Below, piece after piece: positions 1 to 40,365 of a DNA stretch of 64,000 nt. A model generated the notes under the pieces. It did not search any database. It saw only the letters and a program-made list of their open reading frames with translations, and was not told where the DNA came from. The position numbers and the translations under genes are program-made. The number at the start of each line of letters is the position of its first letter. The stretch's first letter is position 1. Origin of the DNA: a virus; IMG/VR virus record IMGVR_UViG_3300020220_003261; one strand, 5' to 3'.

Positions 1-699
1 TTTAACCCTTTATATGATAAATTTTTGTTTCTGTCTTATAACAGACAATGCAGACACCATAGGATTAGATTTATAATTGATTTGTTAGATAAGAATTTAA
101 TTAACAAAGGATTAATAAGTTTAAATAAATTAAATAATATTCCATATGAAACAACGGATCAAAATAAAGATTTTTTAATTAACAAAACACCGTTGATTAT
201 TGATTCACTTCCTGATTTAACGAATAACTTGGCTGTAAACATAACCACTCAAGACTACGAAAGAACATTTATGTCTATTGTCACCGAAACTTTAGCAGAT
301 GATAATACTTTATTTTTTTCTGAAAAAGTATGGAAACCTATTATGGTTGGTCATCCTTTCATGATTTATGGTAATCGTGGGTCATTAAAATATTTGAAAG
401 ATTTAGGATTTAAAACATATGATAAATGGTTTGATGAATCATATGATAACGAACTTGATAGGGACATTAGATCAAAAAAAATTGTAAATGAAATAGAAAG
501 ATTAAGTAAAAAAAGTTTAGAAGAATTGAAAATAATAAGAGAGGAAATGAAAGAAACTTGTCAATATAATTTTCATTTTTATAAAAAATATTATTCAGAA
601 AAGTATGGTAATAATGACCAATCTAAAGCAATAAGAGATATTTTATTAGAAATTTGGTCATCAATTTCTAATACAACGCCAAAACCAAATTTAATATGA
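1..699 (+). CDS. Glycosyltransferase-like phage protein, 5'-truncated (frame open from base 1)
   Basis: SIVTETL..FFSEKVWKPI..HPFMIYG..LGFKTY..DESYD block, shared with 3840..4847; ends PKPNLI. Confidence 0.5.
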   Translation, partial: FNPLYDKFLFLSYNRQCRHHRIRFIIDLLDKNLINKGLISLNKLNNIPYETTDQNKDFLINKTPLIIDSLPDLTNNLAVNITTQDYERTFMSIVTETLADDNTLFFSEKVWKPIMVGHPFMIYGNRGSLKYLKDLGFKTYDKWFDESYDNELDRDIRSKKIVNEIERLSKKSLEELKIIREEMKETCQYNFHFYKKYYSEKYGNNDQSKAIRDILLEIWSSISNTTPKPNLI

Positions 700-6674: not shown

Positions 6675-7109
6675 ATGATATATTGGTTTACAGGACAGCC
6701 CGGATCGGGTAAAACAACATTAGCTCTGGAATTAATGAAACATCTTCCGGCCGCAACCACTGTTCATATTGACGGTGATCACTTAAGGGATATTTTTAAA
6801 AATAAGGACTATTCTGAAGCAGGACGGAGAAAGAATATAGAAAGAGCGCAAGATATTGCTAAGTTCTTAAATACCAAAGGTTATTCGGTTATAGTGTCTT
6901 TAGTTTCCCCATATAAGGACCAAAGAGATAAATTCAAATCAGAAAATTCTGTAGTAGAGATATATGTTCATACCAACGAAACAAGAGGTAGAGAACACTT
7001 TTCTGTAGATGACTACAACCCACCAACTGAAAGATATCTTGATATGGATACAACAAATCAAACAATAGAAGAATCCACTAATAAATTACTTAATACTATA
7101 TTTTTATGA
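6675..7109 (+). CDS. cysC: Adenylyl-sulfate (APS) kinase
   Basis: WFTGQPGSGKTT P-loop, IDGDHLR, DYSEAGRRKNI, VSLVSPY. Confidence 0.85.
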   Translation: MIYWFTGQPGSGKTTLALELMKHLPAATTVHIDGDHLRDIFKNKDYSEAGRRKNIERAQDIAKFLNTKGYSVIVSLVSPYKDQRDKFKSENSVVEIYVHTNETRGREHFSVDDYNPPTERYLDMDTTNQTIEESTNKLLNTIFL

Positions 7110-7480
7110 AAAGGTACGCAATGTACATTGGCAGGTGGCAAAATTGGCACGCCGGTCACGAATGGCTTATTCGCCAGCAATTAGATAAAGGTAAAAATGT
7201 ATGGGTAGCTATCAGAGATGTACAAGTTGATGAAAATAATCCAAAATCAGCAAAAGAGGTATTTTGGTCATTAAAAAATGAACCATTTTTTGCTAATAAT
7301 ACGGACAAAATAATGGTATCTGTCATTCCAGATATAGAATCCGTGAATTATGGTAGAGGTGTTGGATATGATGTTATTTATCATGAGCCGCCAAATGAAA
7401 TCGCCGAAATAAGCGGAACTAAAATTAGAAAAGGAGAAATTGATGTCAATGGTAAAACGACACATAGCAAAGAGTATTAG
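7106..7480 (+). CDS. Small HxGH nucleotidyltransferase (cytidylyltransferase-like)
   Basis: GRWQNWHAGH and C-terminal ISGTKIRK motifs. Confidence 0.75.
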   Translation: MKRYAMYIGRWQNWHAGHEWLIRQQLDKGKNVWVAIRDVQVDENNPKSAKEVFWSLKNEPFFANNTDKIMVSVIPDIESVNYGRGVGYDVIYHEPPNEIAEISGTKIRKGEIDVNGKTTHSKEY

Positions 7481-7658
7481 CTATAGATTTGTAGGTACAA
7501 TAACCACAATCATATTATCTGTATCTGCTGGCCTACCACTAAAGTGGGCGGGTATGGTTGGTTTGGGTGAGTTTATTTTGAAGCCTATCATATATTTTTT
7601 ACATGAGAGAGTTTGGTACAAATGGATAAAATATGGGTTAAAAAATAAAACAATTTAG
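7449..7658 (+). CDS. DUF2061-like small membrane protein
   Basis: KRHIAKSISYRFVGT...YFLHERVW; cysC neighbourhood. Confidence 0.75.
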   Translation: MVKRHIAKSISYRFVGTITTIILSVSAGLPLKWAGMVGLGEFILKPIIYFLHERVWYKWIKYGLKNKTI

Positions 7659-7757
7659 TATATTTATCTATAAAAGGAAAAATTTCTTTTTTAAAACGAC
7701 TTCCCCCCTACCCCCAACCCCTTTGGTAAATTAAAATATTTTTCGTATAATTACAAT

Positions 7758-8264
7758 ATGATAAAAGTAATTGATAATATTTTAACTAAATCTGAGTTTT
7801 CTTTTCTAAAAAAAATTATTAACAACCCCAATTTCTATGCGGACAATAAACCACATACTAAGGTTGATTCAAAAAATTATTACAATCGTAAATTCATAAC
7901 ACCTACGGATAATATAGAAAAAAGGATATATGAGTGTTTAAAATTAGAATATGACTCGCTTAAATTCAAAATTTCTAATTGTTGGATAAACCATATATAT
8001 GTGGATACAAACAAAAATGATAATTTTCATAAAGACAGTTCAGATGTTTCTACGGTACTTTTTTTAAATGAGGGATTTATTGGTGGTAATTTTGAATATA
8101 AAGATTTTAATGGTGATATTAATATTATAACACCGAAAGAAAATCGTTTAATCGTAATCGATAAAGAATGTTTACATAGAGTTAGCAACGTAATTGAAGG
8201 TAATAGATACACTTTTGTAGCGTTTTTACATTTTCAAGAAAAAACAAGTAAAACAATAATATGA
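7758..8264 (+). CDS. 2OG-Fe(II) oxygenase
   Basis: FHKD, VLFLNEGFIGGNF, LHRV, GNRYT; ends SKTII. Confidence 0.85.
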   Translation: MIKVIDNILTKSEFSFLKKIINNPNFYADNKPHTKVDSKNYYNRKFITPTDNIEKRIYECLKLEYDSLKFKISNCWINHIYVDTNKNDNFHKDSSDVSTVLFLNEGFIGGNFEYKDFNGDINIITPKENRLIVIDKECLHRVSNVIEGNRYTFVAFLHFQEKTSKTII

Positions 8265-8272
8265 AATTGATA

Positions 8273-8280
8273 TATTTATA
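8273..8280 (+). promoter_or_regulatory. TATTTATA motif (putative phage late promoter) upstream of the ATP-grasp-Hint gene
   Basis: The same 8-mer lies shortly upstream of about ten starts on both strands; AT-rich, so individually weak. Confidence 0.4.
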
Positions 8281-8297
8281 AAAAAAGGAAAAAATCT

Positions 8298-9746
8298 ATG
8301 AAATCAGTATTAATAGCAACAGATTTAATAAAAACAACTTCAGGAGAAATTAAGGTACTCGAAACCAATACTAATGTAAAAATAGGTCAACCTTTTGGTA
8401 CTAACACACATTACATGGATGGTATCATACCATTTATACAGAATGGTGGTTTTCAAACAGTTCATTGTATTTTGCCAAGAAGTTCACATTATTTTAGTGA
8501 TGAATTAAATAGGGTTTGTAATTCTTTAAACATACCACTAACCATACACTTTACTACACCTGACGCCATTACAGTTCCTTTTATTGAGGATTCAGATGAT
8601 GTGTTAATCATAAGATTAACATACGATACAACAGCAATAATCGATGATGATTATTGTAGAGATAAATTCGCATTACAGAAAATAATTAATACTAAATCTT
8701 ATGGTTCAAAAACATATATACCAAATGTTTTAGATGATTTTGATGGTATTGAAGATTTTATATTCAATGAGAACGCTCCAAATTTTATAATTAAAAAACG
8801 TTTTCCAAACTACAATAAAGAAGTGTGGCCAAAATTGTATAAAATTGAAAATTTAAACCAATTAAACACATTAAAATCAGAAATCGAATCTGATTGTTAT
8901 TTACAGGAATTCCATAATTCCGAATTGATTGATGGAAAAAGATGTATTATCAGAACTCTCGATTTATTATATGGTTCAAATTTAGATGTTTTGAATATTT
9001 GTAGTTTTTATAGAACATCAGAATTGGCCGAGGGCTATTGGCCGAATACGTTTGATGAAAATGGATTACTAGCCTTTAAAGACAGATTTAAATATTTATC
9101 TCACGCCTCACATGAGGATTCATATATATCAGAATATGTTTACGATGTTGACCAAGAAGTTGTAATGGGTGATGGTAGTAAAAAAATGTTCGCACTTTTA
9201 GAAGTTGGAGACCAAGTAAAAGGAATTCACATTGAGGGATTGGATTTAGATGAATCATCATACGATTTAAAAACTTGGACTGGTAATTATTCTGATTTTA
9301 TTCAAAATTACAATTTAGTAACAACCGAAGTAAAATATACACACACTTCACCCCCAACAAACAAATTATTTTTAAGAGTTACTCTTAACGATGGTAATAC
9401 ACAATGGGATGATTTGGGTATTTCTCGAATATTAATAAAGGATAACGATTTGATTAGATTTACATTATTTGAAAATTTAGAAGTGGGTGATGAAATTGTC
9501 ACATATAATTTTGAAACTAATTCTGTAGAAATCAAATCAATTCAAACAATAGAAGTTGTTTATAAAGAAAATCAAATTTTAGGCGTTCTTGATGCAGAAC
9601 CAACTGATTTATATCTACCATTAGTTTCTGATAAAATAACAATTATACAACATAACCTGTGTAAAGCTCTATGTAGAAGTACTCAATGTGCTAATGCGAC
9701 ACAATGCGGTGACTGCACTACATTTCAATGTTTAAACCAAAAATAA
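8298..9746 (+). CDS. Fusion: circularly permuted ATP-grasp-like ligase + Hint domain + C-terminal six-Cys peptide
   Basis: N-terminal DLIKTTSGEIKVLETNTN and FIIKKRFPN/YLQEF; Hint-like VVMGDGSKKM..LEVGDQV..LEVGDEI..IIQHN (about 9138-9656); then LCKALCRSTQCANATQCGDCTTFQCLNQK (9657-9743). Confidence 0.7.
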   Translation: MKSVLIATDLIKTTSGEIKVLETNTNVKIGQPFGTNTHYMDGIIPFIQNGGFQTVHCILPRSSHYFSDELNRVCNSLNIPLTIHFTTPDAITVPFIEDSDDVLIIRLTYDTTAIIDDDYCRDKFALQKIINTKSYGSKTYIPNVLDDFDGIEDFIFNENAPNFIIKKRFPNYNKEVWPKLYKIENLNQLNTLKSEIESDCYLQEFHNSELIDGKRCIIRTLDLLYGSNLDVLNICSFYRTSELAEGYWPNTFDENGLLAFKDRFKYLSHASHEDSYISEYVYDVDQEVVMGDGSKKMFALLEVGDQVKGIHIEGLDLDESSYDLKTWTGNYSDFIQNYNLVTTEVKYTHTSPPTNKLFLRVTLNDGNTQWDDLGISRILIKDNDLIRFTLFENLEVGDEIVTYNFETNSVEIKSIQTIEVVYKENQILGVLDAEPTDLYLPLVSDKITIIQHNLCKALCRSTQCANATQCGDCTTFQCLNQK

Positions 9747-9769
9747 ATTACTTATAAAATAATTAGAAT

Positions 9770-9880
9770 ATGTTAATAAAAATTATATTTCAGCCAACAG
9801 AAGAGTCTACGAAACTAAATTTGGATACCGTGATAAAGGATGTTGCCTCCACTATTAAGACAGACATTCAAAACGGTTAA
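9770..9880 (+). CDS. Small protein, 36 aa (MLIKIIFQPTEESTKLNLDTVIKDVASTIKTDIQNG); not in ORF track
   Basis: ATG-to-TAA ORF that fills the gap between 9746 and 9887. Confidence 0.5.
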   Translation: MLIKIIFQPTEESTKLNLDTVIKDVASTIKTDIQNG

Positions 9881-9886
9881 AATACT

Positions 9887-10180
9887 ATGGGATTAGATAT
9901 TAAAGAAATAACTAAAGCTTGGTTTGATTCTTATTTTGCAAAAGAAGAACAAAAAGCTTTAGCAAAAAAAAGATTTGAAATATGTAAAAATTGTCCATCT
10001 TTAAAGAATAAGTTTCAAATACTTTGGCCAAAAATGGAAATAACAGTTTGTGGTGAATGTGGATGTCCAATAAAAAAAAAGATTTTTTCATCTAACTTTA
10101 ATGCGTGTCCATTAAAAAAATGGAAGGAGGTGGATATGGAAAATATGAAACTATTTGAAAAAAATAAAACTTTAATATAA
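9887..10180 (+). CDS. Cys-rich putative metal-binding protein
   Basis: CKNC..CGECGCP..CPLKKW; ends NKTLI. Confidence 0.65.
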   Translation: MGLDIKEITKAWFDSYFAKEEQKALAKKRFEICKNCPSLKNKFQILWPKMEITVCGECGCPIKKKIFSSNFNACPLKKWKEVDMENMKLFEKNKTLI

Positions 10181-10237
10181 ATTACTTAAAAGTGTGATTT
10201 ACTAAAAAATTTATAGTAAAGGAATAAATTAATTAAT

Positions 10238-10837
10238 GTGAATTATCCTTTTTATCAAGAAGTTATTTTTACGGGAGAAGAATGTAAAAAAATAATAGAA
10301 TATTCTAAAAAATATCCGGCACTCGCTGAAAAGAGAAAATTAGAACCAAAAATAGATTTGACCACAGGTAGAGTAGAACAATTGTTCCAATCTAACGATG
10401 GTGATAAGAAAGGAAAGGCTTTCTTCGTTTATGATATTGTTAGAGATGAGACTACTGAATGGGTTTTTAAAAAACTATTAAATTGGTTTCAAATGGTTTC
10501 GGATATTAAATTAAAAGAAACGCCCGTAGTAAATGGTATGACTCTACTTAATTATAGAGTTGGTGATTTTTTTATGAAACATACGGATATATATGAAAAT
10601 TTTGAGTGGAGAAGATGGACATTAAACATTCAATTAGGTAATCAATATAAAGGGGGTGATTATGTTTTGTATTTAGATGACAAAGAAGTTATCTTAAATA
10701 AAGATACGGGAAACGCAATTGCATATTGGGCCGGTACTGAACACGAAATAAAAGAAATAGAAGAAGGAGAAAGGTGGTCTATTGTTTGTACTATTACTAA
10801 GTATATGATTGTTGAAAAAGAAAAGAAGTTATTTTAA
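10238..10837 (+). CDS. 2OG-Fe(II) oxygenase
   Basis: KHTD, LNIQLGNQYKGGD, EHEI, GERWSIV. Confidence 0.85.
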   Translation: MNYPFYQEVIFTGEECKKIIEYSKKYPALAEKRKLEPKIDLTTGRVEQLFQSNDGDKKGKAFFVYDIVRDETTEWVFKKLLNWFQMVSDIKLKETPVVNGMTLLNYRVGDFFMKHTDIYENFEWRRWTLNIQLGNQYKGGDYVLYLDDKEVILNKDTGNAIAYWAGTEHEIKEIEEGERWSIVCTITKYMIVEKEKKLF

Positions 10838-10838
10838 A

Positions 10839-11531
10839 ATGTCCCTATTAATAAATGATGAGTTAATATGGGTATCAATACCGAAAAATGCGAGTCATTC
10901 GATTGAAAATTCACTTTATTTATCTAATCTTAAAATTGAAAACTTTGATTCCAAACTTAATAATTTAAATCCATCTAATCCAAAATTTTTGCATAAACAC
11001 CATAAGTTAGATGATATGTGTAAATATTGGAAAAACAAAAAATCAATTTGTGTAAAAAGAGACTTTGTGGATAGATGGATTTCCGCATTATCGTACACTT
11101 GGGACCAATTTAAAAAAAAAGAATTATCTCCGATTATTGAGTATGAGGATATAGACAATAATTTTATTTATAAAACCTTTGATAAAAAATTTTCAGATAT
11201 TTTATATGGTCATGATGGTAGAGTTGAAATTATAAAATATCTAATTAAAGATAAATTAAACGAAGATAGTTTATTTGAAAATAGAATAAGCGTATTTTTT
11301 TCACAAAATTATTGGCTTGGATTAAGTAAAAATTGTGATTATGAATTCAATATAAATGAGTTAGATAAGTTGGTTGATTTTATTGAAAACAAATATGGGG
11401 AAAAATTATTGTTAAATAAATTTAACGTATCAAAAAAACAAAGGAATAAAATAATAATAAATAACGAGTTTAAAAACCACATATGGGAGATTTTTGAAAA
11501 ACCATTTGTAAAAACGAAAAAAATTTTGTAA
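10839..11531 (+). CDS. Sulfotransferase-like protein (family 2-like)
   Basis: WVSIPKNASHSI PAPS-binding loop, KRDFVDRWISA; start moved to ATG 10839. Confidence 0.7.
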   Translation: MSLLINDELIWVSIPKNASHSIENSLYLSNLKIENFDSKLNNLNPSNPKFLHKHHKLDDMCKYWKNKKSICVKRDFVDRWISALSYTWDQFKKKELSPIIEYEDIDNNFIYKTFDKKFSDILYGHDGRVEIIKYLIKDKLNEDSLFENRISVFFSQNYWLGLSKNCDYEFNINELDKLVDFIENKYGEKLLLNKFNVSKKQRNKIIINNEFKNHIWEIFEKPFVKTKKIL

Positions 11532-11536
11532 ATAAG

Positions 11537-12154
11537 ATGCACGGTAAAGAAAAAATAAAGATTTCTAAAGATGAGATAAAAATTATTAATAGTAATTTGC
11601 CAACAAATACTATAATGCATTCGGGTGAAAAACATTTAATGGCTAGACTTGCGGACATTGCAACAAAAAATGGCGGTGATATTTTAGAAATTGGTTTTGG
11701 TTTACACCTATCCGCCGATGCTGTTCAGAGTAATCCAAATGTAAAATCACATACTATCATTGAAATACATCCTGAAATATATAAATCGGCATTAACTTGG
11801 GCAAAAGATAAACCAAATGTTAATATTATTTTAGGTGATTGGATTAAAATTTTACCAATATTAGGGGGAAAATTTGATGGTATAATTCACGATACTCATA
11901 TAGATAGAAACATTCCATTTTTTTTGGATTATGTTAAAAATAATTGTAAAAAGGGTGCCATTGTCGCTTTTTTTGAGTATATGTTATTTGATACAAGATT
12001 TAATGGAGTTAGATATAAATTGAACAAAGAAGACTACGATTCTTTACCTTACAGAAATAATCAATGTTTTTTTAATTACGAATACGAATTAAAATATACA
12101 ACATTTAATGGTATTGATTTTTATTCAGATAGAAAAGTTGACAAATTAATTTAA
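11537..12154 (+). CDS. Guanidinoacetate/arginine N-methyltransferase-like (GAMT/Rmt2-like)
   Basis: MHSGEKHLM..GGDILEIGFGL..HTIIEIHP..WA..GDW..FDGIIHDT. Confidence 0.7.
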   Translation: MHGKEKIKISKDEIKIINSNLPTNTIMHSGEKHLMARLADIATKNGGDILEIGFGLHLSADAVQSNPNVKSHTIIEIHPEIYKSALTWAKDKPNVNIILGDWIKILPILGGKFDGIIHDTHIDRNIPFFLDYVKNNCKKGAIVAFFEYMLFDTRFNGVRYKLNKEDYDSLPYRNNQCFFNYEYELKYTTFNGIDFYSDRKVDKLI

Positions 12155-12156
12155 AA

Positions 12157-13203
12157 ATGATTGATTTAAAGAATTATATATGTAGAGTACCTTTTGATTC
12201 ATTAGAAATACATAATAATGTTTGTTTTGTCTGCTGTCCTTCTTGGTTACCAAATAGAGTAGAACTAAATAAAATTCCATTAAGAGATGTTTATAATAGT
12301 AAACCAATAATTGATATTCGAAAATCAATTTTGGATGGTACATTTAAATACTGTGATAAAGAAATGTGTCCTCATTTGAGTAAAGTAATAAAATATGATA
12401 TTCCTGCAGGCCCGATTATTAAAAAAAATAGTGTAGAAAAATTTGATTTAATAATAAAAAATAATACACCAGATAATGTGGTAATGAACTTTGATAGAAC
12501 ATGTAATTATAAATGCCCTTCGTGTAGAATAAATTTAATTGTTGAGGATAGTAATGGAATTAAAAGAATTGAAAAAACAATAGAAGAAATTGATACTTAC
12601 TATTCTGCAAATGTAAAAACATTGTATATTACAGGTACAGGCGACCCATTTGTATCAGTAGGGTTTAGAAATTATTTAAGAAATTTTAACACTAAAAAAT
12701 ATCCAAAATTACAATCAATACATTTACATACAAACGCATCAATGTGGAATCAAGAAATGTGGGAATCAATGCCAAACGTACACAAATATGTAAAAACGTG
12801 TGAAATTAGTATTGATGCCGGAACAAAGGATACTTATGAAAATAAAACTAGATTGGGTGGTAATTGGGAAAATTTACTAAATAACTTAAAGTTTATATCT
12901 ACGATACCAACATTGTATAGAGTTAAAACATCATTTGTGGTACAAGATTCCAATTATATGGAAATGGAAACATTTTATAATTTAATGTATTCTATATTTG
13001 GTGAAAAAGTAAATGTATTTTTTGGTAAAATAACAAATTGGGGAACATATTCTGAAGGTGAGTTTAAATTAAAGCAAGTTTGGAATTTTGAACATCCGGA
13101 ACATATGTTATTTAAAAAAGAATTTAATAAGATATGGAGGAACCAACGACTTTTTCATAATTTATATGAGTTCATTGATAATACAAATAAAACGTTAATA
13201 TAA
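12157..13203 (+). CDS. Radical SAM protein with N-terminal Cys-rich auxiliary domain
   Basis: CNYKCPSC (CxxxCxxC), GTGDPF, HTNA, ISIDAG; N-terminal CRVPF..CFVCC..CDKEMC. Confidence 0.9.
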   Translation: MIDLKNYICRVPFDSLEIHNNVCFVCCPSWLPNRVELNKIPLRDVYNSKPIIDIRKSILDGTFKYCDKEMCPHLSKVIKYDIPAGPIIKKNSVEKFDLIIKNNTPDNVVMNFDRTCNYKCPSCRINLIVEDSNGIKRIEKTIEEIDTYYSANVKTLYITGTGDPFVSVGFRNYLRNFNTKKYPKLQSIHLHTNASMWNQEMWESMPNVHKYVKTCEISIDAGTKDTYENKTRLGGNWENLLNNLKFISTIPTLYRVKTSFVVQDSNYMEMETFYNLMYSIFGEKVNVFFGKITNWGTYSEGEFKLKQVWNFEHPEHMLFKKEFNKIWRNQRLFHNLYEFIDNTNKTLI

Positions 13204-13700
13204 TGAAGATTTTATTAATAACCCTACCCAGAACAGGATCCACTTCATTATTAAAAAATTTATCAGAACAATATAATTTAAATGCAATAAGTGAACCATT
13301 CAACCCATCTACTAAAAATTTAGAACAATATAAAAATTTTGATTGGAATACTACAAATGAAATATGTGTTAAAACCCATATAAATCACAAAGACATATCA
13401 TTCTATACAGATTTTGTAAAACTATTTGATAAAGTAATTTTAGTATCTAGAAAGGATTTAAAGTTGTGTGCTGAGAGTTTGGCATATGCAAATCATTTTG
13501 GAAATTTTAGTGAAAAATACAAATGGATTAATACACCTAATTTAACACATAATGTAAAATTAGTAAAAAAATTTGACGCAGATTTAAAAAAATTATCAGA
13601 ACTAATTAATATTGATATATTATACTATGAAGATTTGTTTGATATAAATTCTGAAAATAAATTAAGAAAAAATGTTGTTAAAAGAAAAAATCTTATTTAG
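13203..13700 (+). CDS. Short sulfotransferase-like (P-loop-like) protein
   Basis: LPRTGSTS, SEPFN, VKTH, YYEDLF. Confidence 0.6.
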   Translation: MKILLITLPRTGSTSLLKNLSEQYNLNAISEPFNPSTKNLEQYKNFDWNTTNEICVKTHINHKDISFYTDFVKLFDKVILVSRKDLKLCAESLAYANHFGNFSEKYKWINTPNLTHNVKLVKKFDADLKKLSELINIDILYYEDLFDINSENKLRKNVVKRKNLI

Positions 13701-14190
13701 TAAAAAAGAGTGTGAATATATTATTGAGTTATCTAAAAATTTACCAAATACTAAACCATACACTAGTAAAAGTGACCAATTTAAAGTTTCTTATGATGCT
13801 TGGAAATTAATTTTAGATAATAATTCTCAATGGATTTTTGATAAAATCACTCAATACTTTACATATGCAACTAATCTAAAAATAAAAAAAGAATTAAGTA
13901 CGTTATATATCCACAAATATAATGTAGGTCAACAATTTGAAAAGCATAACGATACGCAATATAAAACTCAAATACACAATGTAGGTGTATGTTTAAATGA
14001 TGATTATGTAGGTGGTGATTTTATCTTATATAATCCAAAGGAAATACTACCGAAAAGACAAGGTGAAATATACACATTTCCTAGTAGTAGATTTCATGAG
14101 GTTGAACAAATAGTAAAGGGTGAACGATGGAGTATAATTGGATTTATACATATAGAAAATATTTATTTATCTAATAAAACTTTAATATGA
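13672..14190 (+). CDS. 2OG-Fe(II) oxygenase
   Basis: KHND, VCLNDDYVGGDF, FHEV, GERWSII. Confidence 0.85.
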   Translation: MLLKEKILFSKKECEYIIELSKNLPNTKPYTSKSDQFKVSYDAWKLILDNNSQWIFDKITQYFTYATNLKIKKELSTLYIHKYNVGQQFEKHNDTQYKTQIHNVGVCLNDDYVGGDFILYNPKEILPKRQGEIYTFPSSRFHEVEQIVKGERWSIIGFIHIENIYLSNKTLI

Positions 14191-14744
14191 AAATCGCAAT
14201 AACCGGTCACAGCGATGGCGTTGGTAAAAGTATTTATGAAAAACTTTTGAAAGAGTTTAGTGTAATTGGACTAAGTAGGACTAATGGATATGATATTAAA
14301 AACGTTGACGAAATATTGAAACAAGTAGAAGAGTGTGATGTTTTTATTAATAACGCTTTCCAACAAAACTACCAAACGTTATTATTTGAAAAACTTTTTT
14401 ACAGATGGAAATATACCACAAAGTTAATTATTAATATGAACAGTAGTTGTGTATACGAGTCGTCAGACTGGAATCCGACATATGCGAATATTAAAAAGGA
14501 TTTTAAAGAAGTTTCTATGAATATCATAAGAAGCAATATTGATAAGAAAGTTAGGATAACTAATTTGTATCCATCAACACTATCTTCTCACACAAGATTT
14601 GAAAAATTAAATAAAATTGATATTAACTATATTTCAGACGTTATTCTTTGGTTAGTGTCTCAACCTAAAGAGGTCGAAATAAGAGAAATGAGTATTTATA
14701 GTACAACTTTGGAGAAAGAATTTAAAATAGATAAGTTAATGTGA
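14187..14744 (+). CDS. Short-chain dehydrogenase/reductase (compact)
   Basis: ITGHSDGVG, FINNA, YANIK (YxxxK). Confidence 0.8.
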   Translation: MKIAITGHSDGVGKSIYEKLLKEFSVIGLSRTNGYDIKNVDEILKQVEECDVFINNAFQQNYQTLLFEKLFYRWKYTTKLIINMNSSCVYESSDWNPTYANIKKDFKEVSMNIIRSNIDKKVRITNLYPSTLSSHTRFEKLNKIDINYISDVILWLVSQPKEVEIREMSIYSTTLEKEFKIDKLM

Positions 14745-15280
14745 ATGTTTGTATAGTTTGTTATAGTAGAGTCGGTGGTACATCTTTTGGAAAATGGTTA
14801 AGTTTAGAATTAAACTACACTTATATACAGGAACCATTTAATCAAAATCATAACGAATTATATAAAAACACAGATTATTCCGAAAATAAATTTGTTATAA
14901 AATTAGAACCTGAACAAGTTGAATTAATTAAAACAGATAAAAAAACGATTGGATTAATAAGAGAAAACACAATGGATTGTGCAATAAGTTTACTACATTG
15001 TTTAGAAAGTGGTAAATGGCACAGAGAATATAGTGTAAATCAAAATTAGATTGATTACAACAAAAAAAGGTTAGAAGAAATAGAACTACAAATAAAAAAT
15101 CAGAACACTAATATTAAAAAAATGAATACGGATATTTTAGTAACATATGAAGGTATATATAATACACGTTCAGATATACTAAAACTAAAAGAATTTTTTA
15201 ATATTAAAAATTTTTCATATATTTCTACATATTTAAACCCAAAAATACGTTATAGAAATGGTAATAAAATAATAATATAA
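14741..15280 (+). pseudogene. Sulfotransferase-like gene interrupted by one in-frame TAG at 15047-15049
   Basis: YSRVGGTS and QEPFN resemble 13203..13700; the frame stays open for 76 codons after the TAG (IDYNKKR..TYEGIY..GNKIII-stop). Confidence 0.7.
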
Positions 15281-15350
15281 ATTTGGAGCGATTCTCATTA
15301 CTTTGGTTCTTGCAAAAAGAAAATATAAAATTTAAAACAAATAAACTATT

Positions 15351-16148
15351 ATGAATCCTTTACAATATTGGAAACCAGAAGGATTCGAAATTTCATCTTA
15401 CAAATATTCATTAAGAGAAAGAGTAAATCAAACATATACAACTTCGGGTGGAGATAATACAAATTTATGTACTTACACATATAATGAATTGGGATTTAGA
15501 GGTGATAGTATAAAAAAAGAAGGTTTCAAAGTAATGTCATTAGGATGTTCAATCACAGAAGGGGTTGGGGTAAATGATGACGAGACCTGGCCCGCGCAAT
15601 TTTGTAACCATATTGAAAACGGGGTAAATTTAAATTTTGGAACCGGAGGAAGAAGTAACGATTTTATTTGCAGATGTTTAATAAGTTATTATGATTTAAT
15701 ACAACCTGATTTAGTTTTAATTATGTATACATTTCCGCATAGAAGAGAAGTTTATACAGAAGATAACGGAATAGAACCATATGTACCAACAAAAGTTTGG
15801 GGAAAATTATTAGAAACTAAAGAGGGACAAATTATACAAAATAGTATGGATGTTTTACAAAACGATAACTCTGATTTTATAAACTGGTATAAAAATCATA
15901 TTCTAATTAAGTACTTTTTAGAAAGTAAAAAATGTAATTGGTTGTGGAATGGGAAAAACTTAAATATCAATTACAATGAATTCAATAGATTTGATGGGGA
16001 AAAATCATTTTTAGATAAGGGAAGTGACGATAAGCACCCTGGTCCAAAAACACATAATAGAGATGCAAATTTATTATACGATTATATTAGAATGAAATTT
16101 CCAAACTATATTCCAAAAAACGAACATGCCTTTCTTAAAATAATTTAG
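15351..16148 (+). CDS. SGNH/GDSL-like fold protein
   Basis: SLGCSITEGVGV, GTGGRSND, DDKHPG. Confidence 0.6.
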   Translation: MNPLQYWKPEGFEISSYKYSLRERVNQTYTTSGGDNTNLCTYTYNELGFRGDSIKKEGFKVMSLGCSITEGVGVNDDETWPAQFCNHIENGVNLNFGTGGRSNDFICRCLISYYDLIQPDLVLIMYTFPHRREVYTEDNGIEPYVPTKVWGKLLETKEGQIIQNSMDVLQNDNSDFINWYKNHILIKYFLESKKCNWLWNGKNLNINYNEFNRFDGEKSFLDKGSDDKHPGPKTHNRDANLLYDYIRMKFPNYIPKNEHAFLKII

Positions 16149-18911: not shown

Positions 18912-19567
18912 GTACCTTAAACAAAATTGCACAATCGTATGGAACGGATAAAAGTTCAGATATACACAACTACTGTGTAAAATATGAAAAATATCTACCA
19001 TTTAATAGATACGAAGAATTGAACATTTTAGAAATTGGAATCTTAAACGGTAAGTCACTTAAAACATGGAAAGAATATTACTATCGTTCTAAAATTGTCG
19101 GTATTGACATCAATCCTGATTGTAAACAATATGAAGAAGAAAGAGTAAGTGTTGAAATTGGATCACAGGTAGATGGAAGTTTTCTATCTCGTGTTCGGCA
19201 ACAATATGGTCCATTTGATATGATATTAGATGATGGTTCACATATGAATTCACATGTTATATACTCTTTTCAAAACTTGTGGAAAAGCCTAAAATCTGGC
19301 GGTGTTTATATAATAGAAGATTGTGGAACTGCATATTGGGAAGATTATGAGGGCGGTTATTTGAAACCAACAACAAGTGTTGAGGCATTTAAATCTTTAG
19401 TTGATGATGTAAATTTTAGAGGACTAATGAATTTAGATAAACCAAATGTACATGCAAGAAGAGAAGATTGGTTAATAGAATTATCAAAAAAAACACAACC
19501 ATTTTGTGTTGTGGATATCGAGTCAATAAACTTTTTAAACGGAATTATTATAATAACAAAAAGATAA
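18908..19567 (+). CDS. Class I SAM methyltransferase (sugar O-methyltransferase-like)
   Basis: YGTDK, ILEIGI, GIDI, GSQVD, ILDDGSH, LKSGGVYIIED. Confidence 0.85.
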   Translation: MSTLNKIAQSYGTDKSSDIHNYCVKYEKYLPFNRYEELNILEIGILNGKSLKTWKEYYYRSKIVGIDINPDCKQYEEERVSVEIGSQVDGSFLSRVRQQYGPFDMILDDGSHMNSHVIYSFQNLWKSLKSGGVYIIEDCGTAYWEDYEGGYLKPTTSVEAFKSLVDDVNFRGLMNLDKPNVHARREDWLIELSKKTQPFCVVDIESINFLNGIIIITKR

Positions 19568-21687
19568 TGGGATATACGTTCGAAGAGGATATTTTTGTAA
19601 TTGATTGTTGGTTAGATACTGTCGAAAAGGAAAACACTCTATTAAAATTAATTGAAAGAATTAAAGTTTTTAATATACCAATAATTTTATGTGGGCATTT
19701 TCCTGTAAATCCAAAAATTCAGAAACAAGTTGATTATTTTATTTATGATAAAAATAATGATATTTTGTTGGAAAAAGATTTTAATCAGTATGAAGTAATG
19801 AGTGATAGGTGGTCAATTATGAATGACTATAAAGTTTTTAACAAAGTAGATTTTCATCATGACTATGCTATTTGGATCACTATGAAAAATGCTTTTAATT
19901 TAGTTAAACAACTAAATAAAAAATATATCCATTTTCTCGAATATGATAACATACCCGACGAAATTCAATATCGACAAGCTTTTATGGAATATATTAGAAA
20001 CCACGATGCTGTTGTATATGAATATATGCCAGGTTCAACCAATCAAATGCAACCATATTGTTCGACATATATTTTTTCAATAAAAACCGATGTTGCATTA
20101 TCAGTGATTAATAAAGTTAATAATAAAGAAGAGTATTTCAAAAATAGACCAAATGGTTGGCAATTAGAAAAAGTTTTCTTTCAAACGTTAAAAGGTGTGA
20201 CAAGTAATATATTTGTAAGTAAGTATATACCTAATGATAATGAACTTAATATATATGCAGCTTGGAACAGAAATGGAATTTTAAAAAATGGTGCAATTTT
20301 TCAAACTTACTTGGCTGTAGACGAATCCAACAAATTACATATTCATTTCATTTCTGGATTTTCAGAAAAAGACGCTGATAAAGATTACTTATGTGAGATA
20401 AACTATTCAAACACCAAATTTTTCTTTACTGTAAAAAGAAAACAATATCACTTAGAATTGTTGGGTGACTATATAGAAAATGAAACTGTTAGAGTTTTTT
20501 ATCAGGGTATTGAAGTTTTCACACAAAAACTGACCGAAGATGTTATAAAATTTAAAAGAAAAAACATTTTAGAATGGAAAAATAAAGTATCAAATAGAAA
20601 GATAAATGTTCATTTTATTGATGGTGCATATGTTGAAATATTGGACAACATACCTTTGAAATATAATGTTCAATTTATTGATAAAAAAAATAACAATATT
20701 GTTTATAGCACAGAATTAATCAGCAACCATTGGTGTAAGACTTCTTTGAAATATTATGTCGACTGGGAAATTAGGATAAAAGGAATAGATAACGATTATT
20801 TGGAATATCACAATTTTACAACTGAGAATAATAAATTTTATATCTCTTTTGAGACAAAATCTTTGGGTGACACATTAGCTTTTATACCTTATGTTGAGGA
20901 ATTTAGAAAAGAAAAAAAATGTAAAATAATATGTTCGACTTTCCATAATGAATTGTTCAGAAAACAGTATCCCGAAATTGAGTTTGTAAATCCTGGAACA
21001 AATGTTAACAATATTATGGGTCTTTACAGATTAGGACTCTTTTATAATGGATCTAATGTTGATTATGAAAAACATCCTTATAATCCTCTTAAAGAACCGT
21101 TACAAAAAATTGCATCAGATATACTAGGTTTAGACTACAAAGAAATTAAACCATTTTTACCAAAATTAGGAGGACATAAAAAGAAAAGAGTGTGTATTGC
21201 AATTCACTCTACATCACAATGTAAATATTGGAATAACCCACATGGATGGCAAGAAGTAGTTGATTATATAAAATCCCAAGGATATGAAGTTAGGTTACTA
21301 TCAAGAGAAGAAGACGGTTACATGGGAAATAAAAACCCGAAAGGAATAAAACAACAACCAAATAGTTCAACTATCGAAATACTTAAAGTTCTACAAGAGT
21401 CACATTTATTTATAGGAATAAGTAGTGGTTTGAGTTGGTTGGCATGGGCTTCAGATATACCTGTAATATTGGTATCGGGATTTACAGATGTTTATTTAGA
21501 ACCATTTAAAGATGTGACTAGAATTATAAATAAAGATGTGTGTAACGGATGTTGGCATAATCATAAGTTTGATCCGGGAGATTGGTATTGGTGTCCAATT
21601 CATAAAGGAACAGACAAACAATACGAATGTTCAAAAGAAATAAGTGGGCAAAATGTTATTTCTTCGATAAAAAAATTTTTAGTTTAA
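19567..21687 (+). CDS. Unknown N-terminal domain + TibC/Aah-like (autotransporter O-heptosyltransferase family, GT9-related) domain
   Basis: KSLGDTLAFIPY, AIHSTSQCKYWNN..W, FIGISSGLSWLAW, four-Cys CNGC..WCP..ECS; start at ATG 19567 (TAATG overlap). Confidence 0.8.
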   Translation: MGYTFEEDIFVIDCWLDTVEKENTLLKLIERIKVFNIPIILCGHFPVNPKIQKQVDYFIYDKNNDILLEKDFNQYEVMSDRWSIMNDYKVFNKVDFHHDYAIWITMKNAFNLVKQLNKKYIHFLEYDNIPDEIQYRQAFMEYIRNHDAVVYEYMPGSTNQMQPYCSTYIFSIKTDVALSVINKVNNKEEYFKNRPNGWQLEKVFFQTLKGVTSNIFVSKYIPNDNELNIYAAWNRNGILKNGAIFQTYLAVDESNKLHIHFISGFSEKDADKDYLCEINYSNTKFFFTVKRKQYHLELLGDYIENETVRVFYQGIEVFTQKLTEDVIKFKRKNILEWKNKVSNRKINVHFIDGAYVEILDNIPLKYNVQFIDKKNNNIVYSTELISNHWCKTSLKYYVDWEIRIKGIDNDYLEYHNFTTENNKFYISFETKSLGDTLAFIPYVEEFRKEKKCKIICSTFHNELFRKQYPEIEFVNPGTNVNNIMGLYRLGLFYNGSNVDYEKHPYNPLKEPLQKIASDILGLDYKEIKPFLPKLGGHKKKRVCIAIHSTSQCKYWNNPHGWQEVVDYIKSQGYEVRLLSREEDGYMGNKNPKGIKQQPNSSTIEILKVLQESHLFIGISSGLSWLAWASDIPVILVSGFTDVYLEPFKDVTRIINKDVCNGCWHNHKFDPGDWYWCPIHKGTDKQYECSKEISGQNVISSIKKFLV

Positions 21688-21738: not shown

Positions 21739-24333
21739 ATGAAAATATTTCAGCCTTTAATAACTGGTTCGTTAAGTGTATCAGGCTCAACGACGATTAG
21801 TCAAGATTTAACAGTCCTTGGAACCATCAATGCGACGATTAGTGGTACCACAACAAACGCAATTACCGCTTCATATGCTTTAAATGCAGATACTATTGAT
21901 AATATTGATTCATTAAGATTAGCAACAACTGGAAGTAACACATTTAATGCAGATCAAACAGTAACTGGATCAATAAAGATTCAAGGAGATTTATACATTA
22001 ACGGGACTCAGTATACGGCTGCAACATCAGGAACCTCAGGAACAAGCGGTTCTTCTGGTTCATCAGGAACTTCAGGATCATCTGGTAGCTCTGGTTCGTC
22101 TGGTTCTTCTGGTAGCTCAGGTTCTTCGGGAACAAGCGGTTCTTCTGGTTCATCAGGAACAAGTGGTAGCTCAGGTACATCAGGAACCTCTGGTACAAGT
22201 GGAACATCAGGAACTTCAGGATCATCTGGTAGCTCTGGTTCGTCTGGTTCTTCTGGTAGCTCAGGTTCTTCGGGAACTAGTGGAACATCTGGTTCATCAG
22301 GAACAAGTGGTAGCTCAGGTACATCAGGAACCTCTGGTACAAGTGGAACATCAGGATCATCAGGATCATCTGGATCGAGTGGTACTGTAACAATGACAGG
22401 AGCTCAAGATAATGGTGTATTAACATTAAACGGTTCCTCTCCAAATGTGACCGCCGAAACTAATTTAACATTTGATGGCACAACATTAACTGTTACTGGT
22501 GACGTATTAATAACAAATAATTTATTAGTACAAGGAACAAATACAAATTTACAAGTTACTCAATTGTTTATTGAGGACAAGACAATAACATTAGCTAGTG
22601 GTTCTTTAACAGCAGCAGCTGCCAATGGTGCAGGTATTGAGGTAGTTGGCCCAACAACAGCGGCAACAATCACATATACAAGTGCGAACGATAGTTGGAA
22701 TACTAATAAAATATTAAGAGTTCCTGAGTTATTCATAAATGGAACACAATATACTGCGGCAACCTCAGGTACAAGTGGTTCATCTGGTTCTTCGGGAACA
22801 AGTGGAACATCGGGATCAAGTGGTTCGTCTGGATCTTCTGGTAGCTCAGGTTCTTCGGGAACAAGTGGAACATCGGGATCAAGTGGTTCGTCTGGATCTT
22901 CTGGTTCATCAGGAACCTCTGGTACAAGTGGAACATCGGGATCAAGTGGTTCGTCTGGATCCTCTGGTAGCTCAGGTTCTTCGGGAACTTCAGGAAGTTC
23001 AGGTTCATCAGGAACCTCAGGTAGTAGTGGTAGCTCAGGTTCATCTGGAACATCAGGTTCTTCTGGATCATCAGGAACCTCAGGTAGTAGTGGTAGCTCA
23101 GGTTCATCAGGAACCTCAGGTAGTAGTGGTAGCTCAGGTTCATCTGGAACATCAGGTTCTTCTGGTTCATCAGGTTCATCAGGAACCTCAGGTAGTAGTG
23201 GTAGCTCAGGTTCATCTGGAACATCAGGTTCTTCTGGTTCTTCTGGATCATCAGGAACCTCAGGTAGTAGTGGTAGCTCAGGTTCATCAGGTTCATCAGG
23301 AAGTTCTGGGTCAAGCGGATCAAGTGGATCAAGTGGATCAAGTGGATCATCAGGTACTTCAGTTTCAGTATCAGGAACTAACAATACATTAGTTAAATTC
23401 ACATCAGCATCAACAGTGGGTAATTCATCCATTACAGATGATGGTACAACAGTAACAATTGGTGGTAACTTAGTTATTTCAGGTACACAAACAACAGTTA
23501 ACTCAACAACCGTTAATATTGCTGATAATATTATTCAATTAAATGGTACTGGAGCAACAAACGCAGGTTTAGTTGTAAGAGACGCTACCGCATCTACGTT
23601 GGTATCAGGTTCATTTTTGTGGGATACAACAAATGATAAATGGATTGCGGGTCCGTTAGGATCTGAAGATGATGTTGTATTAAAAACAGCATCGCAAACT
23701 TTAACGAATAAAACAATTAACGCTTCCCAATTAGTTGATGCATCTGTAACAAATGCTAAATTAACTAACTCATCTTTAACAGTTACGGCTGGTACAGGTA
23801 TGAGTGGTGGAGGATCAGTTGCATTAGGGTCATCGGTAACATTAACAAATGCCGGTGTGACATCGGCGGTTGCAGGAACGGGTGTTAGTGTAAGTGCCGG
23901 AACAGGAGCGGTAACAATTTCAATTGGTCAAGCCGTAGCGACCAACTCGAATGTTCAATTTAACGCTTTAGGTGTTGGAACCGCTGCACCAAACACGGCA
24001 GGTTTGATTAGAGCAACAAATGACGTAATTGCTTTCTATGGCTCAGATATAAGATTAAAAGAAAATATAACACCTATATCTAATCCAATCGAAAAGTTAA
24101 AACAAATAAATGGTTACGAATTTGATTGGATTCCTTTAGAGGGTATTCACGAAAATGAAGGTCATGATATTGGAGTGGTTGCTCAAGAGATTGAAGAAGT
24201 CTTACCTGAAATTGTAACAACAAGAGATAATGGTTATAAGGCTGTTAAGTATGAAAAACTTGTGGCGTTATTAATCGAATCTAATAAAGAATTACTTAGG
24301 AAAATTGAAATACTTGAGAATAAACTTAGGTAA
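21739..24333 (+). CDS. Tail fibre/spike with Gly-Ser/Thr triplet repeats and C-terminal peptidase S74 intramolecular chaperone
   Basis: SDIRLKENI..FDW..IGVVAQEIEEVLPEIV..VKYEKLVALLIE..EL; two long (GSS/GTS)n blocks. Confidence 0.88.
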   Translation: MKIFQPLITGSLSVSGSTTISQDLTVLGTINATISGTTTNAITASYALNADTIDNIDSLRLATTGSNTFNADQTVTGSIKIQGDLYINGTQYTAATSGTSGTSGSSGSSGTSGSSGSSGSSGSSGSSGSSGTSGSSGSSGTSGSSGTSGTSGTSGTSGTSGSSGSSGSSGSSGSSGSSGTSGTSGSSGTSGSSGTSGTSGTSGTSGSSGSSGSSGTVTMTGAQDNGVLTLNGSSPNVTAETNLTFDGTTLTVTGDVLITNNLLVQGTNTNLQVTQLFIEDKTITLASGSLTAAAANGAGIEVVGPTTAATITYTSANDSWNTNKILRVPELFINGTQYTAATSGTSGSSGSSGTSGTSGSSGSSGSSGSSGSSGTSGTSGSSGSSGSSGSSGTSGTSGTSGSSGSSGSSGSSGSSGTSGSSGSSGTSGSSGSSGSSGTSGSSGSSGTSGSSGSSGSSGTSGSSGSSGSSGTSGSSGSSGSSGTSGSSGSSGSSGTSGSSGSSGSSGTSGSSGSSGSSGSSGSSGSSGSSGSSGSSGSSGTSVSVSGTNNTLVKFTSASTVGNSSITDDGTTVTIGGNLVISGTQTTVNSTTVNIADNIIQLNGTGATNAGLVVRDATASTLVSGSFLWDTTNDKWIAGPLGSEDDVVLKTASQTLTNKTINASQLVDASVTNAKLTNSSLTVTAGTGMSGGGSVALGSSVTLTNAGVTSAVAGTGVSVSAGTGAVTISIGQAVATNSNVQFNALGVGTAAPNTAGLIRATNDVIAFYGSDIRLKENITPISNPIEKLKQINGYEFDWIPLEGIHENEGHDIGVVAQEIEEVLPEIVTTRDNGYKAVKYEKLVALLIESNKELLRKIEILENKLR
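22024..22386 (+). repeat. Coding G-[ST]-S repeat block 1 with a 144-bp near-perfect tandem duplication
   Basis: 22061-22133 is identical to 22205-22277; 22147-22212 matches 22291-22356. Confidence 0.9.
22762..23358 (+). repeat. Coding G-[ST]-S repeat block 2
   Basis: 63-bp unit three times (about 22795, 22858, 22921); tcaggaacctcaggtagtagtggtagctcaggttcatc five times between 23008 and about 23290. Confidence 0.9.
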
Positions 24334-40155: not shown

Positions 40156-40365
40156 ATGGAAAATATATTTGGTGGATTAATTGAATTTCCTTCAGAAAAA
40201 GAGTTCGATGAATTTCTTAGTAAAATGGACAAAGAAACAGCACTATCTGTGGTAGAAAAGGCTATAGAATTTGCGTATCAAAATAATACATTTTCTGTTC
40301 AGGAAACATATTTTATATATAAATCCTTGAAAATATTGAAAGATAAAAATTTGAATAATGAGTAA
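40156..40365 (+). CDS. Hypothetical protein
   Basis: ORF overlapping the next start. Confidence 0.6.
   Translation: MENIFGGLIEFPSEKEFDEFLSKMDKETALSVVEKAIEFAYQNNTFSVQETYFIYKSLKILKDKNLNNE

Follow-up and report, generated by a model that had tools for sequence, protein, structure and literature searches.

A viral fusion of a predicted ATP-grasp ligase, a Hint domain lacking its N-terminal catalytic residues and a six-cysteine tail: a candidate route to self-released peptides in large phages

Can a phage enzyme carry its own peptide at its C-terminus and set it free by a single cut? The question is raised by a 64,000 nucleotide stretch of viral DNA (IMG/VR record IMGVR_UViG_3300020220_003261; the whole of this stretch is here called the window), in which an open reading frame (ORF) at 8298-9746 on the + strand gives a stop-free translation of 482 aa, the protein P0001. 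An original prediction made from the DNA letters had divided this protein into a ligase, a Hint domain and a six-Cys peptide, a three-part anatomy that is borne out by fold matches, motifs and homologues, and the motifs quoted at that time have all been located in the protein (D9-x12-E22-T-N24, the F-I-I-K-K-R strand with K166, Y-L-Q-E-F with E204, His452-Asn453 and the six-Cys tail). Both the ORF and its three-part build are confirmed as real and beyond chance by the existence of a homologue family, by invariant residues, by retention of His-Asn and by dN/dS, the ratio of nonsynonymous (dN) to synonymous (dS) substitution rates. We think it probable, if far from assured, that P0001 is a self-processing fusion in which one Hint cut after Asn453 frees a 3.15-kDa Cys peptide, and in which the ligase works with or on that peptide, a micro-protein and a six-Cys partner protein. 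The parts of the gene are the following.

8298..9746, + strand: whole gene of the ATP-grasp / Hint / six-Cys-tail fusion, P0001 (open frame, AlphaFold2 model, large homologue family)
8298..9107, + strand: predicted circularly permuted ATP-grasp ligase domain, residues 1-270 (domain model, PDB structural matches)
8322..8369, + strand: putative Mg-binding triad D9 ... E22-x-N24, invariant in 104 diverse homologues
8793..8954, + strand: putative nucleotide-binding elements, namely the K166 strand, Q203-E204 and R219 (conservation, analogy with ATP-grasp motifs)
9138..9656, + strand: Hint domain without N-terminal catalytic residues, residues 281-453 (structural alignment, Foldseek, hhalign)
9651..9656, + strand: His452-Asn453, predicted Asn-cyclisation site with the cut after Asn453 (conservation, alignment with the terminal His-Asn of inteins)
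9657..9743, + strand: 29-aa six-Cys tail, the predicted released peptide, 3153.6 Da reduced, pI 8.3 (Cys framework, variability)

Homologues of P0001 amount to 119 proteins by a word search and to 227 representative clusters at 50% identity by an exhaustive phmmer search, the family being present on 269 IMG/VR stretches; those members that have a name are all called "hypothetical protein". The AlphaFold2 model, made with 104 homologues, has a mean predicted local distance difference test score (pLDDT) of 90.5 and a predicted template modelling score (pTM) of 0.87, with disorder confined to residues 457-482. When conservation was scored over 104 diverse homologues, M1, D9, E22, N24, R106, D116 and R219 were found to be invariant, with K166, N162, D98, H452 and N453 each at least 90% conserved. 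Over 48 locus pairs dN/dS is 0.13 for the ligase part and 0.13 for the Hint part, so that purifying selection acts on both alike and the Hint domain is not one in decay.

The first 280 residues had been proposed to form a circularly permuted ATP-grasp, and structure searches agree with this. Modelled alone they reach a pLDDT of 87, and in a structural comparison of this model with 48,161 PDB representatives the top 11 all belonged to the permuted ATP-grasp clade, spanning residues 1-273 with Z-scores of 7.0-9.7. The best matches were GspS (2io7, Z 9.7) and YgiC (7uka, Z 9.2), the others of the 11 including the glutathione synthetases of trypanosome, plant, nematode and yeast, 3n6x, 3k1t, the fungal E-64 ligase Cp1B (9cjn) and trypanothione synthetase. 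Non-permuted ATP-grasps (TTLL, RimK, LysX/ArgX) align only from about residue 50, which is what a transposition of the C-terminal strands to the first 50 residues would lead one to expect. Foldseek aligns the domain to YgiC with an E-value of 2.6e-7, a shape search of the ESM Atlas places YgiC and CP_ATPgrasp_1/2 nearest outside the family (TM 0.55-0.58), and language-model features concur with the assignment. These models place residues 1-270, by predicted fold, among the circularly permuted ATP-grasps of the GspS/YgiC/CP_ATPgrasp clade. The GSP_synth and CP_ATPgrasp_1/2 sequence models of Pfam and NCBIfam gave no match even at E 10, which makes the domain a new sequence family within the ATP-grasp fold.

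The putative triad D9/E22/N24 sits where GspS residues ~318-332 align (residues 1..273 to GspS 310..610), and its spacing, D9-x12-E22-x-N24, is that of the D-x12-E-x-N Mg ligands of D-Ala-D-Ala ligase (D257/E270/N272). By analogy K166, Q203-E204 and R219 are putative ATP-binding elements, E204 being at least 90% conserved in alignment A1. Enzymes of the GspS, YgiC and glutathione synthetase type link an amine to the carboxylate of a small Cys-containing peptide or acid, and the domain is probably an active carboxylate-amine ligase. Elsewhere in the window, 30 kb from the fusion, there is a saccharopine-dehydrogenase-like gene of the homospermidine/carboxyspermidine-synthesis type (40358-41455, + strand); a gene of polyamine type is worth recording here as the nearest structural relatives of the ligase attach polyamines to thiol peptides, and any link between the two is speculative.

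The limits first given to the Hint domain, 9138-9656, coincide with those of the structural alignment, in which residues 281..453 of the model align end to end with inteins, HhC and bacterial intein-like (BIL) domains at Z 13-17 and a root-mean-square deviation of ~2 A. The VIA structural matches include BIL2 (6y75, Z 16.8), the Npu DnaB intein and hedgehog HhC (16.2) and the BIL domain 2lwy (Z 15.8), and Foldseek gives an E-value of 1.5e-8. The Hint models of Pfam do not match P0001 itself; the PT-HINT model does match distant homologues and a Hint domain that stands alone in the window. Comparison by hhalign with the canonical second Hint domains carried by longer homologues (Prob 98.3, E 1.4e-14) pairs Cys1 with V281, T-x-x-H with D372..S376, the block-F His with D437, and His-Asn with His-Asn. 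Positions 280-281 are Y280/V281 in P0001 and Tyr, His, Ile or Val across the family, and His-Asn is retained in 227 of 234 homologues (97%). The predicted pattern of a missing position-1 Cys, a missing TxxH and a retained His-Asn is borne out.

The loss of the position-1 nucleophile and of TxxH would leave the domain unable to splice or to form an N-terminal thioester, and with His-Asn the requirements for Asn cyclisation are retained. The residue that follows the Asn, Leu454 in P0001, is Cys, Ser or Thr in only 19 of 227 family members, which excludes splicing but not cleavage; as three of the four features that define an intein fail, the domain of P0001 is not an intein. The window's stand-alone Hint, the 140-aa PT-HINT domain P0417 (39324-39746, + strand; 31.7 bits, above the cut-off), begins Met-Ala-Cys, a two-residue "N-extein", and ends in His-Asp rather than His-Asn, and is thus a mirror image of the Hint domain of the fusion, with the N-terminal chemistry kept and the C-terminal cut lost.

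What follows the His-Asn evolves in a manner quite different from what precedes it. A tail of 80 aa or less is found in 159 of the 227 homologues that have His-Asn, and the number of Cys in these short tails is 6 (92 tails), 8 (43), 10 (17) or 12 (1), the count being even in 153 of the 159. For 88 tails the six-Cys framework reads x1-C-x3/4-C-x4-10-C-x5-C-x2-C-x4-C-x2-5. At non-Cys tail positions identity is 16.5%, as against 46% in the ligase and 41% in the Hint part, and within clusters of more than 90% identity 38% of the non-Cys tail columns vary compared with 9.6% for the ligase, 11.4% for the Hint and 1.5% for the tail Cys. A tail that is hypervariable between fixed Cys had been anticipated, and this is what the comparison of homologues gave. 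In the 48 locus pairs the pooled dN/dS is 0.39 for the non-Cys tail, where dN is 5-6-fold higher than in the domains, and dN is 0 for the tail Cys; such a hypervariable but Cys-rich pattern is not by itself proof of positive selection. The tail codons (9657-9743 and their equivalents) also have a dS of 0.56, compared with 0.25-0.33 in the ligase and Hint parts of the same gene pairs, which hints at recombinational swapping of tails or at older alleles. The tail is rich in Tyr, Ser, Thr and Asn, there is no conserved non-Cys position among the six-Cys tails, and the tail alone finds no family match in Pfam. Even numbers of Cys would fit disulfide pairs, and would also fit combinations of Zn2Cys6 and ZnCys4.

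The strongest argument for release comes from the longer homologues, which did not feature in the original prediction. Across the family the sequence after the His-Asn runs from 5 to 1242 aa and contains Cys peptides, further Hint domains, S74, BACON and CBM domains; none of the homologues ends at or before the His-Asn, an outcome that would have spoken against a cleavable tail, and the shortest tails are of 5-7 residues. In 11 longer homologues a stretch of 24-33 aa, with 5-8 Cys, separates the first His-Asn from the Cys1 of a second Hint domain of canonical type, which carries T-x-x-H and a terminal His-Asn of its own, and in one homologue the Cys segment is placed between the second and third Hint. 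In a further architecture, seen in 25 homologues, a Peptidase_S74 domain that opens with S-D-x-x-x-K comes directly after the Cys segment, the boundary reading C-N-x-x-K then S-D in 19 of the 25. The Ser and Lys of S74 catalyse its autoproteolytic detachment (PMC7824862). The short tails stop exactly where the S74 motif begins in these homologues, and 89 of 154 end in Lys, two to five residues past the last Cys. Three architectures therefore delimit the same segment, by self-cleaving junctions or by a natural C-terminus, which argues for a free peptide with defined ends, and the release of such a peptide is the best-supported reading of the bracketed Cys segments as far as their sequences go.

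Two further genes, which the original prediction did not mention, are the partners most tightly linked to the fusion.

9770..9880, + strand: conserved 36-aa micro-ORF, 4018.6 Da, pI 4.9, no Cys (an ORF of the same family lies 3' of the fusion in all loci examined)
9887..10180, + strand: 97-aa six-Cys zinc-ribbon-like partner, weakly DUF6171-like, ending in the K-T-L-I tag discussed below (linkage, conservation)

The micro-ORF begins 23 nt after the stop of the fusion, and a related ORF of 36-52 aa starts 1-63 nt past that stop in 63 of 63 non-identical IMG/VR loci with downstream room, 50 of them being counted by a hidden Markov model built from the close group and the other 13 by direct reading. 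Its C-terminal region is conserved, and by analogy its product could be an immunity-like partner. The octamer TAYTTATA occurs at 8273-8280, 17 nt before the ATG of the fusion, and again at 9749-9756, 13 nt before that of the micro-ORF; with 30 copies observed in the window against 24 +/- 5 expected it is not enriched, and no claim for a promoter is made. The 97-aa protein is a same-strand neighbour of the fusion in 74 of 80 loci; close relatives have it downstream of the fusion and distant ones upstream of it. Residues W12, R29, C33, C36, C55, C58, C60, K65, C74 and W79 are invariant in it. DUF6171 matches 25 of 41 of its members with a best E-value of 6e-5, below the cut-off, and a literature search turned up no paper that mentions DUF6171. 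A search for longer, fused forms of the partner found none, which is weak evidence, and a predicted complex of the fusion with the partner scored 0.25 (mark 0.32) and is counted neither for nor against an interaction.

What we infer for the cleavage, the chemistry of ligation and the biological role is as follows. The N-terminal domain would be a carboxylate-amine ligase of the circularly permuted ATP-grasp clade; the Hint domain, having lost the residues for an N-terminal thioester (position 1 is Val/Tyr and there is no TxxH) and kept its terminal His-Asn, would cut the Asn453-Leu454 bond by cyclisation of Asn453. The products would be a ligase-Hint protein of 52 kDa and, set free from it, a peptide of 29 residues and ~3.15 kDa with six Cys that may pair as three disulfides or hold a metal cluster. 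The ligase would have as its likely partners or substrates the freed peptide, the 36-aa micro-protein and the six-Cys zinc-ribbon-like protein, and it may join a carboxylate to an amine such as the alpha-amine bared by the cut or that of the conserved C-terminal Lys.

A number of observations weigh against this reading and have to be set beside it. The ATP-grasp Z-scores are moderate (8-10), although the list of matches is homogeneous and coverage is full. A profile of the N-domain built from 52 sequences found no match among PDB chains, and P0001 found none in the Pfam, PHROG, NCBIfam and PDB sequence libraries. The block-F His, which helps Asn cyclisation in many inteins, is replaced by Asp437, so that the rate of cleavage is uncertain. 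The tail is unmodelled in the AlphaFold2 structure (pLDDT <50), and its dN/dS is below 1, with which relaxed constraint remains compatible. There are also family members with little to release: P0112, P0192, P0166 and P0167 have only 5-7 residues after the His-Asn with 0-1 Cys, and 14 tandem-Hint forms have linkers of 0-8 residues with no Cys.

The wider neighbourhood bears on what may happen to the peptide, and contains one further feature.

7443..16148, + strand: cassette with gene products that end K-x-hydrophobic-hydrophobic (context; the tag is on twelve consecutive window genes, the fusion excepted)

Recurrence of neighbours was counted over 80 IMG/VR loci, where a nucleotidyltransferase and DUF2061 are each found in 43, a 2-oxoglutarate (2OG) oxygenase in 42, the protein encoded at 13203-13700 in 39, a radical S-adenosylmethionine (SAM) protein in 32 and an adenosine phosphosulfate (APS) kinase in 28. 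This set of neighbours shifts between loci and only the micro-ORF and the six-Cys protein are near-universal. The radical SAM protein, 2.4 kb downstream of the fusion, is twitch-like (NF033640, E 6e-13, far below the cut-off). In the window the APS kinase, a 124-aa HxGH-type nucleotidyltransferase and the DUF2061 membrane protein form a block at 6675-7658 (+ strand), which 28-43 of the 80 loci also have, 4-7 kb upstream of the fusion. The C-terminal tag is carried, over 65 loci, by 50% of same-strand ORFs within 2 kb of the fusion, by 31% at 2-5 kb and by 9% beyond 5 kb, and by none of 64 fusions; in a complete 238-kb genome five of the nine tagged ORFs lie no more than 5.4 kb from the fusion (G004, 116-124 kb). 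As its codons differ between genes the motif is one at protein level. The tag is often K-T/S-L/I-I/L, resembling a class I PDZ ligand, and is carried by unrelated enzymes. The fusion itself sits in a glycan-modification island with many glycosyltransferases and fibre genes, among them an 864-aa fibre-like protein (21739-24333, + strand) that combines collagen triple-helix repeats with a Peptidase_S74 chaperone domain at its C-terminus; a gene of the heptosyltransferase family (19468-21687) precedes it.

That these neighbours tailor the peptide, before or after its release, is a tentative reading that we would still take seriously. The 52-kDa ligase-Hint part would then be a giant self-removing leader, and the tagged neighbours (2OG oxygenases, sulfotransferase-like proteins with a phosphoadenosine phosphosulfate (PAPS) module, a methyltransferase and the radical SAM protein) would be the modifying enzymes of a factory for something like a ribosomally synthesised and post-translationally modified peptide (RiPP). 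The recurrence of these enzymes near the fusion in other phages, the concentration of the shared tag around it, the Tyr, Ser, Thr and Asn of the tail and the twitch-like radical SAM protein are all consistent with such a factory. Yet the set of enzymes varies by locus in a way that the micro-ORF and six-Cys protein do not, the tail has no conserved non-Cys residue that could serve as a target for tailoring, and enzymes in the same island as glycosyltransferases and fibre genes may decorate glycans or fibres instead.

A bolder extension, which we regard as unlikely, would make the fusion the hub of a new peptide- or protein-tagging factory, with the 52-kDa "leader" again removing itself, the K-x-hydrophobic-hydrophobic tag acting as a docking handle or as an activated carboxylate, and the ligase coupling a carboxylate to the amine that the cut has bared on the peptide. 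That carboxylate may be one of the micro-protein, of a tagged protein or of the peptide's own C-terminal Lys, the last of which would give a backbone-cyclised, cystine-knot-like peptide.

It would seem more doubtful still that the cut serves the virion, baring the N-terminus of a variable cargo (a Cys knot, BACON or CBM arrays) which the ATP-grasp then ligates to a carboxylate of fibre or capsid as a hypervariable decoration or adhesin. The BACON, CBM_4_9 and S74 chaperone domains of the long homologues are typical of tail fibres, the tail evolves fast, as do receptor-binding tips, its raised dS suggests exchange of cassettes, and a collagen-like S74 fibre is encoded at 21739-24333; P0001, however, has no virion-anchoring domain, shows no sign of a structural role and matches no PHROG structural family. 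Least likely of all, and improbable in our view, is that there is no cleavage, the Hint being an inert scaffold or spacer, the tail an attached zinc-binding or disulfide module and the ligase an enzyme for some unrelated substrate such as a sugar acid of the island or a polyamine. In its favour, clusters of the Zn2Cys6 plus ZnCys4 type would also fit tails with six, eight or ten Cys, block F has no catalytic His, and the gene lies in a glycan-modification island in a window that has the saccharopine-dehydrogenase-like gene. Against it, 97% retention of His-Asn is hard to explain structurally in a domain that is 41% identical and otherwise stripped of its catalytic residues, and the 36 homologues in which a second self-cleaving domain brackets the Cys segment argue for its excision.

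The self-processing fusion, whatever the fate of its peptide, is best explained as belonging to large tailed phages. Clusters of the family in the ESM Atlas are 100% viral and assigned to Uroviricota, and three complete or near-complete records (238-316 kb) with distant family members encode a T4-type gp23. An origin in giant viruses was considered and rejected, the capsid of nucleocytoplasmic large DNA viruses not being found in four related records and the T4-type gp23 being present in the three complete ones. Synteny with the window, at 65-77% nucleotide identity, is shown by a 176-kb record that is only 53% complete; no portal, terminase or sheath was found in this half-complete record. 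Searches of 50,697 GenBank phage records by tblastn with P0001 and by megablast with the first 20 kb gave no match. Some contigs carry a paralogue that consists of the ligase domain only, of 274 aa and 52% identical over residues 1-238 (L081, 4001-4825; also L082 and L083), and on the same contigs, ~3.4 kb downstream of it, lies a 770-aa paralogue with ligase and triple Hint (L081, 8255 onward; also L082 and L083).

If the predicted cut occurs, large aquatic phages would make small, fast-diversifying Cys-framework peptides by a route that has previously been undescribed, in which an enzyme carries its own peptide and frees it with a one-sided Hint domain. Together with the universal micro-protein and the conserved six-Cys partner the fusion forms a compact three-gene module. 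Ligase chemistry of a new kind may come out of it, along with peptides of a new phage-made class (toxin, adhesin or signal), and protein engineering may gain a natural Hint domain that cleaves at its C-terminus only. Through it the many orphan 2OG oxygenases and sulfotransferase-like genes that marine and freshwater myophages carry may also become open to functional study.

A number of known systems share part of this layout. A similar arrangement is that of BIL domains and of the PT-HINT domains of polymorphic toxins, where a Hint domain likewise stands directly before a variable C-terminal cargo that is expected to be released autoproteolytically without splicing, and the two BIL domains listed above (6y75, Z 16.8; 2lwy, Z 15.8) are among the best structural matches of the Hint domain of P0001. 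Unlike them P0001 has neither the position-1 nucleophile nor TxxH, which would leave only the C-terminal cut, and its cargo is a 29-aa Cys-framework peptide; unlike PT-HINT toxins its N-terminal partner is a predicted ATP-grasp ligase with no signal-like region, rather than a secretion or trafficking domain. With GspS, YgiC, YjfC, eukaryotic glutathione synthetase and CP_ATPgrasp_1-2 the ligase domain shares the permuted topology, which puts the metal-binding D...E-x-N strands at the N-terminus, but it is much smaller than GspS-type ligases (~270 aa) and is fused to a Hint.

The longer homologues, with a small segment between the His-Asn junction of one Hint and the Cys1 junction of the next, resemble Tetrahymena BUBL (BIL - ubiquitin-like - BIL) and SICLOPPS, in which this flanking arrangement frees and activates the middle segment, and the BIL2 domain of BUBL is the top VIA match of the P0001 Hint. 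The window protein differs from both in having no downstream Hint, the tail ending at the natural C-terminus, in an upstream Hint that is N-terminally dead and in the presence of an ATP-grasp; the middle segment of the homologues, moreover, is a Cys-rich peptide and not a ubiquitin-like fold as in BUBL. Twenty-five homologues resemble the Peptidase S74 fibre chaperones in having the self-cleaving S74 domain right after the Cys segment, whereas the window protein has no S74 and its tail ends at the expected S74 start.

As in graspetides and in SCIFF/ranthipeptides, the coding sequence of a short hypervariable ribosomal peptide comes together with that of a ligase and has a radical SAM gene nearby. 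The RiPP ATP-grasp 7mgv is, however, non-permuted and matches the N-domain only at Z 4.8 and from residue 52, and the tail of P0001 lacks the conserved Asp, Glu, Lys, Ser or Thr for the lactone or lactam rings of graspetides; nor is the radical SAM protein adjacent as for SCIFF/ranthipeptides, being present in only 32 of the 80 loci. In contrast to RiPP systems in general, the leader here would be an enzyme of 453 aa that its own Hint domain cuts away. A search of the literature found no paper that describes a fusion of ATP-grasp and Hint in phages, in agreement with the original remark that no described pathway of this architecture was known. The layout is therefore seen as Hint-mediated release of a C-terminal cargo in a new form, and there is a real chance that the module as a whole is categorically new.

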